Assembly (NCBI GenBank): GCA_019912885.1
Contig: JAIOHV010000229.1
Span: 3,846-67,845 of the forward strand
From: a bacterium
Lineage (GTDB): Bacteria > Lernaellota > Lernaellaia > JACKCT01
Length of the DNA: 64,000 bases
Direction: 5' to 3'
Shown here: piece by piece, positions 17,822 through 61,106 of the stretch
How the letters are laid out: each line of letters begins with the position of its first letter
How positions within the stretch are numbered: position 1 is the stretch's first letter
The notes under the pieces: model-generated
Told to the model about the DNA's origin: nothing
Databases searched by the model: none
Seen by the model: only the letters and a program-made list of their open reading frames with translations
Translations under genes and position numbers: made by a program

Positions 17822-18826
17822 GTGCCTTTATACAACAGACATTTGTCGAACCCGGCTTTTGAATACCTCTTAAGCAGCGATGGCGCGGACCTTCTGAAAC
17901 TTTTGCTGTCACCCGGCGTCAAAACGACAAATGCCGGGATACGCGTCCCTATCGACGTCCAGTTCCGACGGGGCGATTTTATCCAACTGTACGCCGGAAC
18001 CGCGTGCGTTCTGCGGTTGCAGTGGAACGGGACGACGTTTCAGTCAATACCGAAAAGTGTCCACAACTTCATCCGTTTGCGCGAAAACACAGTCACTGCG
18101 ATTGTGGAAAATTGGGAGCACCATCGAGACTCGGTTGAAATTAATGAACCGAGGTTCTTATTAAATGAATCGACGTGGCAAGCTGCCCTCGCTTTTCGCT
18201 TCGGACGGAATTTCAAAAAAGGCGATCCATTTTGTGTCATTGACGCCCAAATGAGGATGGAAACGCTTGCAGACAGCCGTGAACTAGAAATTGTCCAAGA
18301 AAGTTATAGGCCGATTCGCCAATCACTATGCGAATTGCCGGTAATTCGTTTGCCAAAGGAGTTTGCGTCCGGCAGTTTCTGGGATCAAATCGACATTCTC
18401 GGAATAAACGGTGATGGCAAGATCATCGTTGTCGAAATTAAGGTCGGGACCAGCGCGCGTGGCGTCTATTCGGGGCCGATTCAAGCGGGAGGCTATACCG
18501 AGCTCTTGACGGAATTTAAAGGCGACCTAGTTGCCGGCGTCCGTCCCCTGATCGAACAAAAAAAGCAACTTGGCCTACTACCCGCAAGTGCTCCGGATTT
18601 TAACCCGTCTGGCGACTTCGAAATTGCACCGATTCTGGCTGTCGGTGAACCGAATTGGCGCTCGTCGATGTGGAAAACGCTTGGAATCGTTCTGTCTGAA
18701 TGCCTCGAAAAAAAGTCGGAGACTTTTAAGGATTTTCGAATTTGTACATTCGACGATGTCGATTTCGACAAACAGTCAATGCGACCGGAACAAATCGCAC
18801 GGCTAAATCTGCCTTGGTATTTCTAA
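17822..18826 (+). CDS. PD-(D/E)xK-like (restriction-endonuclease-fold) protein, horizontally acquired
   Basis: It has a GTG start with GGAGA upstream. GC is markedly lower than its surroundings. The C-terminal half contains ...FWDQIDILGINGDGKIIVVEIKVG..., i.e. a D-(x13)-ExK catalytic triad pattern of PD-(D/E)xK nucleases. The remaining domains are unassigned. Confidence 0.55.
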   Translation: MPLYNRHLSNPAFEYLLSSDGADLLKLLLSPGVKTTNAGIRVPIDVQFRRGDFIQLYAGTACVLRLQWNGTTFQSIPKSVHNFIRLRENTVTAIVENWEHHRDSVEINEPRFLLNESTWQAALAFRFGRNFKKGDPFCVIDAQMRMETLADSRELEIVQESYRPIRQSLCELPVIRLPKEFASGSFWDQIDILGINGDGKIIVVEIKVGTSARGVYSGPIQAGGYTELLTEFKGDLVAGVRPLIEQKKQLGLLPASAPDFNPSGDFEIAPILAVGEPNWRSSMWKTLGIVLSECLEKKSETFKDFRICTFDDVDFDKQSMRPEQIARLNLPWYF

Positions 18827-55964: not shown

Positions 55965-56109
55965 GGACCCCTCCCGGATGCGCGCCATGGTGGCAAATTC
56001 GCGCACGCCTGACAACGCAAACGCGGCGGCCGGGTAGCCGCCGCGTTTTGGATTTCGGATTCTCGATCGCGGAATTCGGACCGCGGACCCAACAGCGCCC
56101 GCGCGGTTT

Positions 56110-56183
56110 GTCACCCTGAGCGAAGCGAAGGGCCTACAATCGTGCCGGCGCGGGGCGAGATCCTTCGCTTCGCTCAGGATGAC
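56110..56183. repeat. Long imperfect inverted repeat (23-nt arms, about 28-nt spacer)
   Basis: The arms gtcaccctgagcgaagcgaaggg ... tccttcgcttcgctcaggatgac match 21/23 on reverse-complement. It is a candidate terminator or structured element between two minus-strand genes. Confidence 0.6.
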
Positions 56184-56197
56184 AGCCCCCTACGAAT

Positions 56198-56295
56198 GGC
56201 CGACCGCTGATAGCCGATCGCCGATGACCGATCGCTGACGGCCGATCGCTGATGGCCGATCTCCGTTGGCCGATCGCTGATGGCCGACCGCTGAA
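56198..56295. repeat. Tandem repeat, about 7 copies of a 14-bp unit (GGCCGATCGCTGAT consensus)
   Basis: Units ggccgaccgctgat / agccgatcgccgat / gaccgatcgctgac / ggccgatcgctgat / ggccgatctccgtt / ggccgatcgctgat / ggccgaccgctgaa are intergenic. Confidence 0.8.
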
Positions 56296-56302
56296 CGCTG
56301 GC

Positions 56303-57223
56303 CTAGCTCCCGCAGCAGCCGCCCGTGACCTGTCCCTCGGGCCAGCCGGCGCCTTCCTCTTCCTCTTCGGTACCGATGTTCGGATCGAGGTCCGACTCGT
56401 CGTCGTCATCGGTGAGGTCGGGGGTATCGTCTTCGTCCTCCTCCGAGAGGCAGGATTTGGTCGCCTCGTCGCAGATCGTGCCTTCCGCGCAGGGGTTGCC
56501 GGAATGCGCGCAATCCTGGTCCTTGAAGGAGCACGACTCCTCGCCGTTGCAGAACAGGCCGTCGTCCTCGCAAAGGGGCGCCTCGCCCTCGACGCAATGA
56601 TAGTTCACGCACGTTTCGGCGCCCGTGCACCAGTCGTGGTCGTCGCAGTGCTCATCGATGACGCATTCCTGGATGGCGTCGGTGGAGATGTCGTCGATCA
56701 GCCAGTTGTTGCCGGTGCCGGAAACCATGACGTACGCCATGCCCGGCGCTTCCACGCGCAGCGTGTCGAGCCGGCCGGTGCCGAGGTTGTCATAAATCCC
56801 GACTTCCTGATCGAGCACCGTCCCCAACTCGTCGTAGGCGGTCAGCGTGATGCCGGAACTGACGGAGTAGCCAAGCTCGAAATACGTCGCATAGGACTGC
56901 GTGAAGCTAATGACGCCGTTGCCCTGATCGGTGCCGAGCCACGCGAAGAAATTGCCGTTCGAAAAGAACTGCGTCGGGATGGGATAGAGGTCGGTGACCG
57001 CGCCGTTGGGATAGCTGCCGTTGTAGTCGTTGGTGCGCCAGTCGCCGTAGAGCCAGTCGTAGCCGGCGGTGTTCGTGAACTGCAAGCCCGTGATCGTGCT
57101 GAAGATCTTGCCGCCGTCCCAGCCGTTTTCGAAATCGATGAATCCGGCGTTTGCCGGCAGCGCGGCGATTAGGCCCGCGCAAAGGGCAAGCAAAGCCAGC
57201 CCGAAAATCAAAAGGCGTTTCAT
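56303..57223 (-). CDS. Secreted Cys-rich protein with C-terminal acidic tail ending GGCCGS
   Basis: The signal peptide is MKRLLIFGLALLALCAGLIAALPANA (SD AAGGACAGGA). The N-terminal domain is Gly/Asn/Tyr-rich. The C-terminal third has more than 20 Cys (CxxxC spacing, EGF/knottin-like). The tail reads ...EEDEDDTPDLTDDDDESDLDPNIGTEEEEEGAGWPEGQVTGGCCGS*. Confidence 0.7.
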   Translation of the reverse strand: MKRLLIFGLALLALCAGLIAALPANAGFIDFENGWDGGKIFSTITGLQFTNTAGYDWLYGDWRTNDYNGSYPNGAVTDLYPIPTQFFSNGNFFAWLGTDQGNGVISFTQSYATYFELGYSVSSGITLTAYDELGTVLDQEVGIYDNLGTGRLDTLRVEAPGMAYVMVSGTGNNWLIDDISTDAIQECVIDEHCDDHDWCTGAETCVNYHCVEGEAPLCEDDGLFCNGEESCSFKDQDCAHSGNPCAEGTICDEATKSCLSEEDEDDTPDLTDDDDESDLDPNIGTEEEEEGAGWPEGQVTGGCCGS

Positions 57224-57413
57224 GTTCCTGTCCTTCCGGCCCCGTAGGCTACAATAGCGTGACAGCATAGCCGGAAACCGATCCCAAAAGCCACCGTGCG
57301 AACGGATTTGCGTCAGGCGATCGTCACGAGACGGAGGACGGATGAGCCGCGGCGATCAGAGCGGCGAACAGAGCCGCGAACATGAGTGATCGGCCGCCCC
57401 GTTTTTGCCGTGA

Positions 57414-57511
57414 GCCGGCGATCGGAACGAATAGGTGACTGTCCCCATTTTCCCCCATTTTCCCCATTTTCCATCGTGGCCGGCGATCGGAAAGAATAGG
57501 TGACTGTCCCC
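57414..57511. repeat. Two direct copies of a 33-bp repeat (gccggcgatcggaMMgaataggtgactgtcccc) separated by an (attttcccc)n mini-tandem
   Basis: The copies lie at 57414-57446 and 57479-57511. A 17-bp inverted partner (ggggacagtcacctatt) lies at 58694-58710. Confidence 0.75.
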
Positions 57512-57518
57512 TTTTTCC

Positions 57519-57654
57519 CGGATCGATGGCAAGCGCTTCGTCCGCGCTTTTCGCGTCGTTTCGCACCACCACGACGTCCGCGCCCAGCGTCCCGAGCGCC
57601 TGCACGAGGTTGTAGGTAAACGAGTCGTAGTTGTCGATCACCAGAACGCGCATC
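57519..57654 (-). pseudogene. 5' fragment of trpG/pabA-type class-I glutamine amidotransferase (about 45 codons)
   Basis: Translation [47 protein letters not shown] matches the N-terminus of anthranilate/aminodeoxychorismate synthase component II. The frame turns to nonsense exactly at the 33-bp repeat copy (57511/57519). Confidence 0.6.
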
Positions 57655-57991
57655 GAAAAGCCCCTCGCTCCGCGCCGCCTGCCCCAAGCAACCGAAGGCG
57701 TCCGGCGCGGCGTCCGAATCGGACACGCGGTATGCCTAAAACGAAACGCACGGGGCCGCAAGGGCGCAGCGCGCCGGCCGCGGCGACCCCGCTCGCGGTC
57801 GGCGACTCGCACCGCGGGCGCGGGGGGTTCTCTCCGATCGAGTAAGCGGATAGAATGCGTCAAATTTGCAAGGGGGAATGTGAGCGTGGTACGCGAATTA
57901 ACAGCGGAGCGAGGCCCAGCACCACTAGGCCAAGGTCAGTTTTTTGCGCGGAATGGGGAATCTAGCAGGCACCTGTCACGGTTTTTTTACG

Positions 57992-58666
57992 ATGAATAAA
58001 TTAATTTTGGCAGCAATTTGCCTTGTAGCTGGCGGCTGCGAACTATATCATCCGGCACCGCAGATCAAGCCAGAAGACCGGACCGCGAAAGCTGAGTCGG
58101 CAATAAATTCAATTGATAATAACATTGAACAAATGAAAGCTCAGAACAGAGATAAGCTTGACATCTTGTCCTATAAATGCGAAATGGATTCTTATATATA
58201 CAATAATTACCATCTTCGATATGACTTTACGGCGTGCCACGAATTAAAGCTACAAAAAGAACGCGATCTAAAATCACTACAACGGGAGCAATATCGAAAA
58301 AGAATAGGGACAGACGATAGCGAGGAAAATCCCGAAAAAGCACTAAAATATTTTTGCCACAATTTTGAACAATTGCTGCTTGCAGAAATCAAGCTATATG
58401 GATCCATGGAAGATACCAAAAAAATTATGCCGCTATCAAAGCACCTACAGAATCAGCGCAATATCACTGAATTTCAAGCGCAAAGAAATGTCTACGTCAA
58501 AGCAACACGGGGATCGCTTGCGAAATATTATAAACTTGGCGGAACTATTAATATTAAAAAAGAATTCGAGAAAGGGCAAGATGGCATAACGCTGGCGTGT
58601 CCAACTATTTCTCCGCATATATTCGGATATATTAGCAGATATAACTTAATGCTAAAGTTCAAATAA
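57992..58666 (+). CDS. Foreign low-GC lipoprotein (hypothetical)
   Basis: Translation MNKLILAAICLVAGGC|ELYHPAPQ... has a lipobox. The protein is about 225 aa and K/N/Y/E-rich. Local GC drops sharply (roughly 35-40%) between about 57840 and 58690, unlike the flanks. Confidence 0.65.
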   Translation: MNKLILAAICLVAGGCELYHPAPQIKPEDRTAKAESAINSIDNNIEQMKAQNRDKLDILSYKCEMDSYIYNNYHLRYDFTACHELKLQKERDLKSLQREQYRKRIGTDDSEENPEKALKYFCHNFEQLLLAEIKLYGSMEDTKKIMPLSKHLQNQRNITEFQAQRNVYVKATRGSLAKYYKLGGTINIKKEFEKGQDGITLACPTISPHIFGYISRYNLMLKFK

Positions 58667-58693
58667 TTTAAGGCAAAAAAAACGGAAAAAAAC

Positions 58694-58710
58694 GGGGACA
58701 GTCACCTATT
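58694..58710. repeat. Inverted copy of the 17-bp core (ggggacagtcacctatt) of the 57414/57479 repeats
   Basis: It is an exact reverse-complement of aataggtgactgtcccc and lies at the right edge of the low-GC insert. Confidence 0.7.
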
Positions 58711-58860
58711 TTCCCCCTCTTTAATCGTGCAATTGTTGTCCAAAAAGAATGGCGAGACGTCGTCGTGGCGGGTTGTCTTTGTCTTTCGTTTGCGACTTGC
58801 TTCATAAACGTGTCTCCCGGACCTTAAAAAGGGCGTCTCCGCTTCGGCGTTCCTGGCCGG

Positions 58861-59190
58861 TCATCCCGCCTCCACGCTCGCCGAATCCTCGATCACGAGA
58901 TCGAGACGCAGGTCGTTCGTGTGCGCCTCCCGCGGATTCCACGTGCCCGCGCCGTCCGTTGGATTGAACGGGCCGTTCGCGTCGTCGTCGTTCGTCTCGT
59001 TCCAGTCTTCCGGCTGCACATTCACCTCGGCGTTTTCGCCCGTGCACGTTATACCACGCATCGTTACGTTGCCGGTATAGGGCGCCGTCGTGTTCTTTTT
59101 CCGGTGGATCGTTGTCACGTCCGCGACCGGGCCGGTGATGAGGTCGACGCCCGCCTCAGAATGGGCGGCGTCTGCGCGTGAAGCGATCAT
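58861..59190 (-). CDS. Small hypothetical protein (109 aa), translationally coupled to upstream membrane protein gene
   Basis: Only the tail of track ORF 58861..60222 looks genuine: MIASRADAAHSEAGVDLITGPVADVTTIHRKKNTTAPYTGNVTMRGITCTG... Its ATG overlaps the stop of 59187..61106 (ATGA). The upstream part of that ORF is an Arg-rich out-of-frame shadow. Confidence 0.4.
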   Translation of the reverse strand: MIASRADAAHSEAGVDLITGPVADVTTIHRKKNTTAPYTGNVTMRGITCTGENAEVNVQPEDWNETNDDDANGPFNPTDGAGTWNPREAHTNDLRLDLVIEDSASVEAG

Positions 59191-61106
59191 GGTGCATCGT
59201 CCGCGGTTGCCAGCGGAGTTGGTTTCGGCCCGCAGATTCCCGCCGGGTCCGGAATGTTTCGGTTTTCGAGCACGTAGAAATGGCCCACCGTGGCGGCTTG
59301 TTTGAAGTTTTCGTACAGAAAGCGGCGCACGATGGGCGCGGCGTTCGCGAGGCGCCGGGCGTCGCCCTCGATGGAATCGTCGATGTAGGCCACGACGCGC
59401 GGCGGATTTTGGCGAAGGCGCTCGATGACGCGGTCCTGGCTCTCGACGCTGTCGGCATAAAAGACGAGCGACGGATAGCCCGTCGGGTCGCGCCGGCCGG
59501 AAAGGAAATAGAGCAGCGGTTGATTGGTCGGCGCGAACAGGCGATCGCATTCGCCGCCGAGCGCGTTGATCTCGGTGAGCAGGTCGCGCAATTCGATGGC
59601 CTCGTGCTCGAACAGGCGCAGCGTGTCGCGCCCGATGCGCACCGACCTCGCGCGTGCGAAGCGGTTCGAGACGGCGCCGGTGTAGGGATCGGCCGGGTGG
59701 TGCGTGACCGCGGCCGCAAACGGCAGGACCGACGCGAAAACGAGCGCCGCCACAAGGCTGGTCGAAAGCGGCCAGCGGGGATTTGGCGCCAGATGATCGC
59801 GCAGCGCCTGAAGGACGATGGCCGAAAGCAGCACGGCAAACGGCGCGGCCTGCAGCGCGTGGGAGATGTCGGGCTTGACGCGGATCGGGTGCGCCGCGGC
59901 GAGGCACACAAGCGCGACGACGGCGTGGCCGGCGAGGCGGGCGCGGGTGTATTTCGAAGCAGGTGAGGACACCTGCGGTCCCGGGGAGGAGCCCGTCGAC
60001 CCGGCGAGATCGCGTGGTTTTTGGGGGTTGGTTGGCCCGGCGGTTTTTTCTTTCGAAGAAGGCCGGACGCCTGCGCTCCCGGAGGACAACGTCGCATTCG
60101 AAGCGGGCGGGACGCCTGCGCTCCCAGCGAAAAGCAGGTGCGCGGCCATCGCGGCGAGAGCGACGATCGGCCACCACAGCAGCAGCGCATCCAGGCGGCG
60201 CGGGCCGGTGACGGCGGTCCACGGCGCGGGCATGCGCGGCTCCTCAATGGCGAGATTCTTTTGCACCTCGTCGGCGAATTGCGCGAGCGCCGGGGATATC
60301 GTGCCGGTCGCCGCGTGGAAAGCGATCGGCAGCGCGAAGGCGAGCGCCAGGGACGCCAGCGCGCCGATGAAGGCGTATTTCGCGAGTGCGTGTTCACCTC
60401 GCCGACGCACGAGCCACGAGGCGAGCATCGCGCCCCCGGCGGCCGCCGCGCCGATATCCAGGCGCAAGAGCGTCGCGCCGAAGACCACGGCGGCAAGCAC
60501 GAGGGCGCCGCGCCGCGCGGGCGACGTGACGAATCCGTGTCCGGCCAGCGCGGCGGCGAGCATGCCGAGCACCCAGAACGCCTTGTGCGCGGGTCCGGGA
60601 GCGAGCAGAAACGCGACGGGCGGCGCAAGCGCAAAAAGCGGCGACACGGCGCGCAGCGCCAGCCGATGCAGCGCGATCGTCGCCGCCGCCTGGACGCCGA
60701 TCCAGATCAGGTGCAGCGCGGTCAACGATACGCCCGTGACCGACAACAACGCCGCGAGCGCGTAATAACGGACCAGGCCGTAGGAGTTGATGGCGAAATC
60801 GCGCGCGGGGATCTCGCCGCGCAAGATGCGTTCGACGTAGTAGAGGACCTCGCCTTCGTCGAACCACACGAGTCCGCGGTTGAGCACCAAAAGACGCAGG
60901 ACGACGCACCCGGCGGCAAGCGCGCCGGTGACGTGCCACGTGCCGGCCGCCCGCGCGATCGAACCGGCGCTCGCGGTCACCGCGCCCGGCTCCTCAGGTT
61001 TTTCCGGATTGTTCCGTTCATTCGGATATTCCCAATCATAGCGCGCCAAGACGCCGACCGTCAGGCTCCCGGCCGCGTCCCGGACAATAATCCCAGGGCA
61101 TGCCAA
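59187..61106 (-). CDS. Polytopic membrane protein, possible GT-C-like (DUF2029/PMT-like) with Ser/Pro-rich internal linker
   Basis: More than 10 TM helices are present. The first loop reads ...LVWFDEGEVLYYVERILRGEIPARDF (a DE motif). An internal low-complexity linker is encoded by a 27-bp imperfect direct repeat (60055-60081, 60100-60126). The C-terminal soluble domain is unassigned. Confidence 0.55.
   Translation of the reverse strand: MACPGIIVRDAAGSLTVGVLARYDWEYPNERNNPEKPEEPGAVTASAGSIARAAGTWHVTGALAAGCVVLRLLVLNRGLVWFDEGEVLYYVERILRGEIPARDFAINSYGLVRYYALAALLSVTGVSLTALHLIWIGVQAAATIALHRLALRAVSPLFALAPPVAFLLAPGPAHKAFWVLGMLAAALAGHGFVTSPARRGALVLAAVVFGATLLRLDIGAAAAGGAMLASWLVRRRGEHALAKYAFIGALASLALAFALPIAFHAATGTISPALAQFADEVQKNLAIEEPRMPAPWTAVTGPRRLDALLLWWPIVALAAMAAHLLFAGSAGVPPASNATLSSGSAGVRPSSKEKTAGPTNPQKPRDLAGSTGSSPGPQVSSPASKYTRARLAGHAVVALVCLAAAHPIRVKPDISHALQAAPFAVLLSAIVLQALRDHLAPNPRWPLSTSLVAALVFASVLPFAAAVTHHPADPYTGAVSNRFARARSVRIGRDTLRLFEHEAIELRDLLTEINALGGECDRLFAPTNQPLLYFLSGRRDPTGYPSLVFYADSVESQDRVIERLRQNPPRVVAYIDDSIEGDARRLANAAPIVRRFLYENFKQAATVGHFYVLENRNIPDPAGICGPKPTPLATADDAP

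Follow-up and report, generated by a model that had tools for sequence, protein, structure and literature searches.

Relation to described repeat systems

Terminal inverted repeats (TIRs), and not GTAG-tagged repetitive extragenic palindromes (REPs), flank a set of transposases that resemble the REP-associated tyrosine transposases (RAYTs); these transposases have been named TIRYTs and the elements TIRtrons (Di Nocera et al. 2013, PMC3733652). Many TIRYT repeats have the tip motif GGGGWSAS in common (PMC3733652; the consensus is also given in PMC6006769), and in some genomes they make up moderately abundant families of single, dimeric or grouped units (PMC3733652). Most TIRYTs are placed in TnpAY1 subclass 2.1 (Quentin et al. 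2018, PMC6006769), whose members are marked by the motifs NHVH, W[EQ], Y[IV]..NP and SS, have a median length of 238 aa and are distributed widely and patchily (PMC6006769, Table 1). This subclass is the same as the RAYT group 1 of Bertels et al. (2017, PMC5581495), which has the widest distribution of the RAYT groups and moderately repeated flanking 16-mers. A C-terminal helix-turn-helix (HTH) extension of the Bac_DnaA_C, HTH_23 or HTH_28 type serves as a membership criterion for TIRYTs. Here a locus with repeats of this kind is described from a 64-kb stretch of bacterial DNA (contig JAIOHV010000229.1 of assembly GCA_019912885.1; the whole stretch is referred to as the window), in which the 1.63-kb gap 57227–58860 between two flanking genes (K8I61_20490 and K8I61_20510) holds three copies of a short repeat, a truncated trpG/pabA gene and an AT-rich islet with an orphan lipoprotein gene.

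The segment 57414–58710 had been interpreted, in what we call the original prediction, as a repeat-bounded insert that carries the lipoprotein gene and lacks a transposase, possibly a MITE-like (miniature inverted-repeat transposable element) or degenerate mobile element, a remnant of cargo left by an integration that destroyed trpG/pabA, or the outcome of REP-mediated rearrangement. The part of this proposal that concerns the repeats holds, as they belong to a REP/MITE-like family, namely TIRYT/RAYT ends, whereas the reading of the segment as one element is not supported. The explanation we favour, with a probability of roughly one half (0.52), is that the locus consists of three solo TIRtron-type ends, a trpG pseudogene and an acquired ORFan islet, and that the repeats delimit no mobile unit. 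An ordinary combination of remnants from a repeat family already described, a pseudogene and an ORFan gained by acquisition would then replace a possible transposase-less cargo element, and 57414–58710 would cease to be a candidate new mobile element.

Repeat units of the window

The 17-nt core AATAGGTGACTGTCCCC occurs three times in the window, at 57430–57446 and 57495–57511 on the forward strand and at 58694–58710 on the reverse strand. A fourth copy was not found in the 64 kb at up to three mismatches (chance expectation 0.06), and an nhmmer profile search of the window recovered the same three copies and none further. The two direct repeats, first reported as 33 bp, are present but longer, covering 41 nt at 95% identity (57414–57454 and 57479–57519) with a period of 65 bp and a longest shared exact stretch of 18 nt. 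The reported 17-bp inverted partner was likewise recovered at 58694–58710, and its pairing with the direct copies extends over 22–32 nt. The units are arranged as follows:

57414–57454, forward strand: TIR unit copy 1, with inner flank GCCGGCGATCGGAACG (57414–57429), core AATAGGTGACTGTCCCC (57430–57446) and tail ATTTTCCC; outer CCCC tip towards the right
57442–57478, forward strand: tip-proximal motif CCCCATTTT, in about three reiterations between copies 1 and 2
57479–57519, forward strand: TIR unit copy 2, core 57495–57511, 95% identical to copy 1; outer edge adjoins the trpG stub
58683–58716, reverse strand: TIR unit copy 3, solo, core 58694–58710, inside the AT-rich islet and 28 nt past the lipoprotein stop codon; outer GGGG tip towards the left

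The outer end of all three copies is GGGGACAG, which fits the GGGGWSAS tip of TIRYT repeats, and the inner end of the unit is ATAG, not GTAG. The inner flank of the two left copies is GC-rich (GCCGGCGATCGGAAMG). The tips at 57446 and 57511 on the one side and at 58694 on the other point towards each other, so that the 1.2 kb between them is flanking DNA outside both elements, with one element interior left of 57430 and the other right of 58710. These units differ from a TIRtron in being three solo copies unaccompanied by a transposase gene, none being detected by tblastn for Y1 transposases in the 64-kb window, as had been noted originally. With no partner arm (none within 140 nt of any of the three), no predicted fold (the single units fold no better than shuffled sequences, z = -0.8 to +1.0) and no transposase nearby, they are inert.

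No target-site duplication was found at 57414/58710, where the flanks (...gccgtga/GCCGGC and CCTATT/ttccccc) have no direct repeat in common. The direct repeat unit starts at the palindrome GCCGGC, which could, although this is only suggestive, represent the centre of a lost hairpin. No Rfam match to a structured RNA was obtained in 56000–59300. A fourth, degenerate repeat at 57950–57980, just upstream of the lipoprotein start, was considered and rejected, as it scored 23.5 against a background maximum of 24.0 in the window.

The repeat family in other genomes

A scan with the exact pattern AATAGGTGACTGTCCCCNTT, taking one genome per species, retrieved at least 120 stretches from at least 55 assemblies; retrieval by exact match inflates the apparent invariance of the TIR unit. 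The core is thus not unique to this locus, nor was an intact amidotransferase gene found nearby, the combination that was to speak against the original prediction. Among the matches listed, the assemblies with the core were all metagenome-assembled genomes (MAGs), including megabase-scale long-read contigs and one closed chromosome, and their labels include Planctomycetota (many), Hydrogenedentota, Sumerlaeota, Nitrospirota, Acidobacteriota, Armatimonadota, Verrucomicrobiota, Fischerbacteria and Gammaproteobacteria. Some short contigs carry other labels; for example, L100 (JAFCEM010000086.1), binned as Aenigmatarchaeota, has bacterial-type TIRYT remnants, and L034, with GC-rich flanks, is binned as Nealsonbacteria. 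Such placements are probably binning errors and not an extension of the family into DPANN or CPR lineages.

Full-length Y1 transposase genes were present 11 times, in 10 assemblies, among the 120 loci listed. At every one of these related loci (not in the window) the core flanks the gene in inverted orientation and at a roughly fixed distance, as in TIRtrons: the GGGG-first arm GGGGACAGTCACCTATT begins 50–121 nt (mostly 50–60) before the start codon, and the AATAGG-first arm AATAGGTGACTGTCCCC lies -5 to +57 nt from the gene end, with at most two mismatches. The predicted proteins (222–255 aa) score 39–52 bits against Pfam Y1_Tnp (cutoff 23), and among the NCBIfam models they match REP_Tyr_transpos ('REP-associated tyrosine transposase') best, with a score of 73.7 bits that falls narrowly short of the cutoff of 80. 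NH[VI]H, WQ and WSS are found in 11/11 and Y[VI]E.NP in 10/11, a resemblance to TIRYTs in the motifs NHVH, WQ, Y..NP and SS that is accompanied by a similar size (~225–255 aa). The proteins also have a conserved basic C-terminal tail (...LGRRLRPLPxGRPRK); for a C-terminal HTH there was no Pfam match even at E <= 10. Because the core flanks Y1 transposases in 11/11 loci and the tip fits GGGGWSAS, the repeats of the window are taken as TIRYT ends, and on sequence grounds these data identify them as terminal inverted repeats of the TIRYT type (RAYT group 1, TnpAY1 subclass 2.1; HUH/Y1 transposases).

Of 157 arms open to evaluation, 107 belong to L-spacer-R dimers, in which a reverse-complement arm lies 2–111 nt upstream (spacer modes 12 and 41–47 nt); 48 singlets and 7 direct tandems were also counted, and dimers from other genomes form very stable hairpins (z = -8.6 and -12). 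The GGGG tips point outward in all 11 transposase loci and in the 107 dimers. Single, dimeric and grouped units at moderate copy number, and a wide, patchy taxonomic spread, are again features that the family has in common with TIRYT repeats. Derived from the partner arms, the conserved DNA unit is ~23–26 nt long, A-AATAGGTGACTGTCCCC-ATTTT(CC), and the conserved block of the family ends +21 to +24 from the core start.

Across the assemblies, labelled as many phyla, the 23-nt unit was observed to be near-invariant, mostly at 0.9–1.0 per position in the partner arms and less at the outer tip and tail, which exceeds the published 8-nt consensus of TIRYT repeats. Transposase identity between lineages is only 50–62% (median 57%), and a near-invariant unit beside proteins of such divergence suggests that the recognition site is under strong constraint or that horizontal spread is frequent. 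The unit A-AATAGGTGACTGTCCCC-ATTTT provides a sharp marker for TIRYT elements. A search of the literature by the repeat sequence returned no paper containing it, the family being recognized via its transposase. The 17-mer matched viral contigs six times, a number judged to be about chance level without a formal expectation.

The other-genome copies may also be compared with two better known classes of repeat. REP and REPIN sequences with their RAYTs (E. coli and Pseudomonas type) are likewise short and non-coding, and are linked to a Y1 transposase locus of one gene; they also form hairpins as inverted doublets, lie mostly between genes and leave singlets as remnants. The present family differs in that its single unit is not palindromic and has no fold, in the ATAG in place of GTAG, in copy numbers of tens and not hundreds, and in the NCBIfam score below cutoff; hairpin doublets were seen for the family in other genomes and not for any window copy. 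MITEs (Correia/NEMIS, RUP, ERIC etc.) resemble the other-genome dimers in size (~50–130 bp), in inverted ends of 17–25 bp, in being non-coding and in the strong hairpin, and these dimers probably behave like MITEs, in the manner of non-autonomous derivatives. The 1.3-kb interval of the window is unlike a MITE, with its inward tips, no target duplication, and a pseudogene and a coding gene inside.

Several minor features of the family were observed. The stop codon of the transposase gene lies inside the downstream TIR (…AAT AGG TGA or …AA TAG) in loci L003, L060, L117, L022 and others. The opposite strand of the repeat is free of stop codons in all frames, giving recurrent spurious peptides (…GDSHLF…, …GTVTYF…, …GQSPI…) in called open reading frames (ORFs), and these are recognizable and can be masked in MAG annotation. 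Outside the tip, a motif of 8–10 nt that starts like the tail is often repeated 2–4 times (CCCCATTTT, ATTATCC, GTTTACTCC, ATTTACGTCC); such reiterations occur at 57442–57478 in the window and at loci L006, L007, L013, L041, L080, L094, L095 and others, and could have arisen by slippage, mark repeated rounds of insertion and excision, or serve as additional binding sites.

The trpG/pabA stub and the AT-rich islet

Between the left and right repeats, and extending past the latter, the following features were distinguished:

57519–57653, reverse strand: trpG/pabA (class I glutamine amidotransferase gene), of which a 5' fragment of 45 codons is left, from the ATG at 57653 to Pro45 (57519–57521), the last codon with homology
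57654–57929, no strand: GC-rich (0.6–0.8) stretch between the trpG start and the islet, with no recognizable coding or RNA function
57930–58790, no strand: AT-rich islet of ~0.86 kb, GC 0.28–0.47 compared with 0.64 for the window; boundaries approximate (~50 bp)
57992–58666, forward strand: orphan gene whose 224-aa product is predicted to be a lipoprotein (MBZ0274424.1, K8I61_20500, 'hypothetical protein K8I61_20500 [bacterium]')

The stub matches positions 1–36 of 190 of the Pfam GATase model and residues 2–46 of E. coli PabA (tblastn, E = 1e-11). The prediction that trpG/pabA is cut after about 45 codons exactly at the repeat was borne out, homology ending at Pro45 by the edge of copy 2, where the reading frame runs on into the repeat; the stub was found inside the repeat-bounded interval and not beside it, as had been stated. 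Only the N-terminal 45 residues are kept and the catalytic Cys-His-Glu region is absent, and a tblastn search with E. coli PabA did not find the rest of TrpG/PabA in any frame of the window. The stub is a pseudogene fragment. Its GC content at third codon positions (GC3, 0.844) is host-like, the neighbouring genes having 0.79–0.85. Homology to trpG starts at +24/+25 of copy 2, at most 3 nt from the end of the family's conservation, and in sequence terms the breakpoint resembles a junction between element and insertion target. Inversion between the inverted repeats was considered as a cause of the truncation and rejected, as nothing trpG-like lies beyond either repeat and trpG is therefore not restored.

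The islet is the only strong dip in composition in the window. AT-rich DNA had been placed between the repeats; it is indeed present but fills only the right two thirds of the interval and runs ~80 bp past the right repeat, so that copy 3 and ~80 bp on its interior side resemble the orphan gene in being AT-rich. Neither boundary (~57930, ~58790) coincides with a repeat core. The orphan ORF lies in an open frame of 244 codons and is taken as real because 2000 shuffles of the islet gave frames of at most 199 codons. A lipobox, MNKLILAAICLVAGG followed by C (residue 16), matches the PROSITE PS51257-type pattern and predicts the product to be a lipoprotein. With a GC3 of 0.369, against 0.79–0.85 in four neighbouring genes, the gene is compositionally foreign, in agreement with the original prediction on both points.

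Among 5.8 billion clustered proteins the orphan protein found only itself, its 90% cluster containing one other protein, which is a longer start-site variant and comes from the same two sequencing runs, and a full HMMER pass over 1.84 billion representatives again returned only itself. No Pfam domain scored above cutoff (best DUF5101, 17.5 bits compared with a cutoff of 27), and there was no PHROG, PADLOC or PDB match. Neither islet nor protein matched viral contigs, plasmids or phages. A single-sequence AlphaFold2 model is mostly helical and unreliable (predicted local distance difference test score 51), and no terminator or plus-strand promoter consensus was found near the gene. Acquired islets carrying ORFans are alike in their sharp GC and GC3 contrast, in holding one gene without homologues for a secreted or lipoprotein-type product, and in occupying, as here, a non-essential intergenic interval beside mobile-element remnants. 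The present islet differs in having no integrase, tRNA or att-like site.

Assembly support

The per-run assembly of SRR15662000 contains one contig of 2917 nt that corresponds to 56300–59216 at 100% identity and spans all junctions, and that of SRR15662001 contains a contig corresponding to 57659–59480, also at 100% identity, which spans the right junction. The agreement of two independent per-run assemblies indicates that the junctions are not a product of the MAG assembly. Contigs of SRR15662001 end at 57420 and 57659, on either side of the repeat cluster and trpG stub, through which SRR15662000 passes; these breaks could reflect low coverage or strain heterogeneity. An assembly chimera, in which reads of a low-GC organism were joined to a GC-rich genome at the repeats, would be favoured by these breaks and by the occurrence of the repeat core in many organisms. 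We consider it extremely unlikely, given a contig of one run that spans all junctions and a contig of the other that spans the right junction, a core plus tail of 23–26 nt and a longest exact stretch of 18 nt between copies 1 and 2, all too short for the usual k-mer confusion (the k of the Logan assemblies is taken here to be 31), and AT/GC boundaries neither of which falls on a repeat core.

Origin of the locus

On the favoured explanation, a dimer or a full TIRtron of the TIRYT type would have inserted into trpG/pabA, or come to lie against it, at codon 45/46. Subsequent loss by deletion of the other, inner half of the element and of the last three quarters of trpG/pabA, at its 3' end, would have left a dead stub, and the surviving end would have been partly duplicated with the 65-bp period; 7 comparable tandems occur elsewhere among the evaluated arms. 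Separately, ~0.86 kb of low-GC DNA would have been acquired, comprising the orphan lipoprotein gene and, downstream of it, the first ~100 bp of a second element of the same family. The interval 57227–58860 would thus be dispensable, insertion-tolerant DNA where scars accumulate, and TIRYT enzymes would presumably be what mobilizes such units.

Several points weigh against this explanation. All three copies in the 64 kb lie within 1.3 kb and beside the only strong islet, for which the chance is ~0.04 with two random placements, or ~0.25 if insertions are limited to non-coding DNA. This improbable co-location makes some causal link conceivable and is the weakest point of the account; it is the reason why import of a mosaic and repeat-mediated recombination are kept as rivals below. 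The neighbourhood holds no other trp/pab gene, so that the stub may not be native, and an intact ancestral trpG at this position is presumed, no related genome with an orthologous locus having been found. To our knowledge there is no biochemical demonstration of TIRYT transposition.

The same absence of trp/pab genes, the confinement of the repeats to a single interval and flanking genes that have no syntenic relatives for comparison would also suit an import en bloc, in which the whole of ~57227–58860, stub and both repeat clusters included, arrived already scrambled and trpG was never resident. Its two compositions (GC3 of 0.84 in the stub, matching the host, and 0.37 in the orphan gene) would have required two or more donors, or host DNA besides that of a donor, and plasmids and phages yielded no homologous DNA; we regard such an import as unlikely. 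Homologous or transposase-catalysed recombination between TIR units could instead have deleted the 3' part of trpG and joined the present pieces. REP-type repeats in E. coli are established substrates of rearrangement, and here the trpG breakpoint coincides with a repeat edge, two tandem units of 65-bp period lie at it, and the repeated unit starts at the possible hairpin centre GCCGGC. Recombination of this kind is nevertheless doubtful and, we judge, somewhat less likely than mosaic import, for inversion between the inverted copies leaves trpG unrestored with nothing trpG-like past 58710, the islet boundaries lie off the repeat cores, the candidate copy at 57950–57980 is no better than background, and sibling copies with the same inner flanks as in the window were found neither among the 120 loci nor in two metagenome scans.

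The originally predicted model, a discrete MITE-like or composite element with lipoprotein cargo that destroyed trpG on insertion, draws on inverted copies of a bona fide transposon end that bracket the segment and on the foreign gene inside it. It is largely refuted by the orientation of the ends, which point inward, the reverse of what is seen at 11/11 transposase loci and in 107 dimers. A cargo insert bounded by its own repeats is further contradicted by the trpG stub inside the segment and its heterogeneous composition, by the lack of a target-site duplication and by the uniqueness of both unit and gene in public data, no second copy of the unit being found. Nor is AT-rich cargo a property of the family, since none of 122 copies elsewhere has a GC drop above 0.18 beside it, compared with 0.27 in the window. 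We therefore consider this model highly improbable. A separate reading that accommodates the inward tips is an 'inside-out' composite, in which a Y1 transposase would cut single-stranded DNA at two elements and move the ordinary DNA between their inward-facing ends. Such an event seems very improbable; if it took place, it would explain how a host-like trpG stub and a low-GC orphan gene travelled together between half-elements, a complete L-spacer-R dimer would form again once the segment's ends were joined, and these elements would carry small orphan genes between genomes that differ widely in GC.

Neighbouring genes and other repeats

Genes nearby encode a pseudouridine synthase, GpsA, a glycosidase and unannotated secreted or membrane proteins. 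The left neighbour (56303–57226, reverse strand) encodes a secreted protein whose sequence includes a Cys-rich region and an acidic tail and which belongs to a family essentially without Pfam domains; 56 homologues were found in metagenomes, with a best identity of 66%, in unrelated contexts and with no GATase nearby. No homologue of the right neighbour was found. A tandem array of ~8 copies of a 14-bp unit (GGCCGATCGCTGAT and variants) at 56184–56309 overlaps the stop codon of the left neighbour and fills the space downstream of it, and a CGATCG/CCGATCGC theme is common to its unit and to the inner flank (GCCGGCGATCGG) of the left TIR copies. Adjoining the array, a 23-bp inverted repeat at 56109–56184 (TGTCACCCTGAGCGAAGCGAAGG ... 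CCTTCGCTTCGCTCAGGATGACA; 96% complementary, 30-nt loop) occurs once in the window, is absent from the 120 fetched loci and may be a terminator or belong to another repeat family. A second, weaker AT-rich dip is located at ~17950–18500, where GC falls 0.15–0.18 below the window mean.

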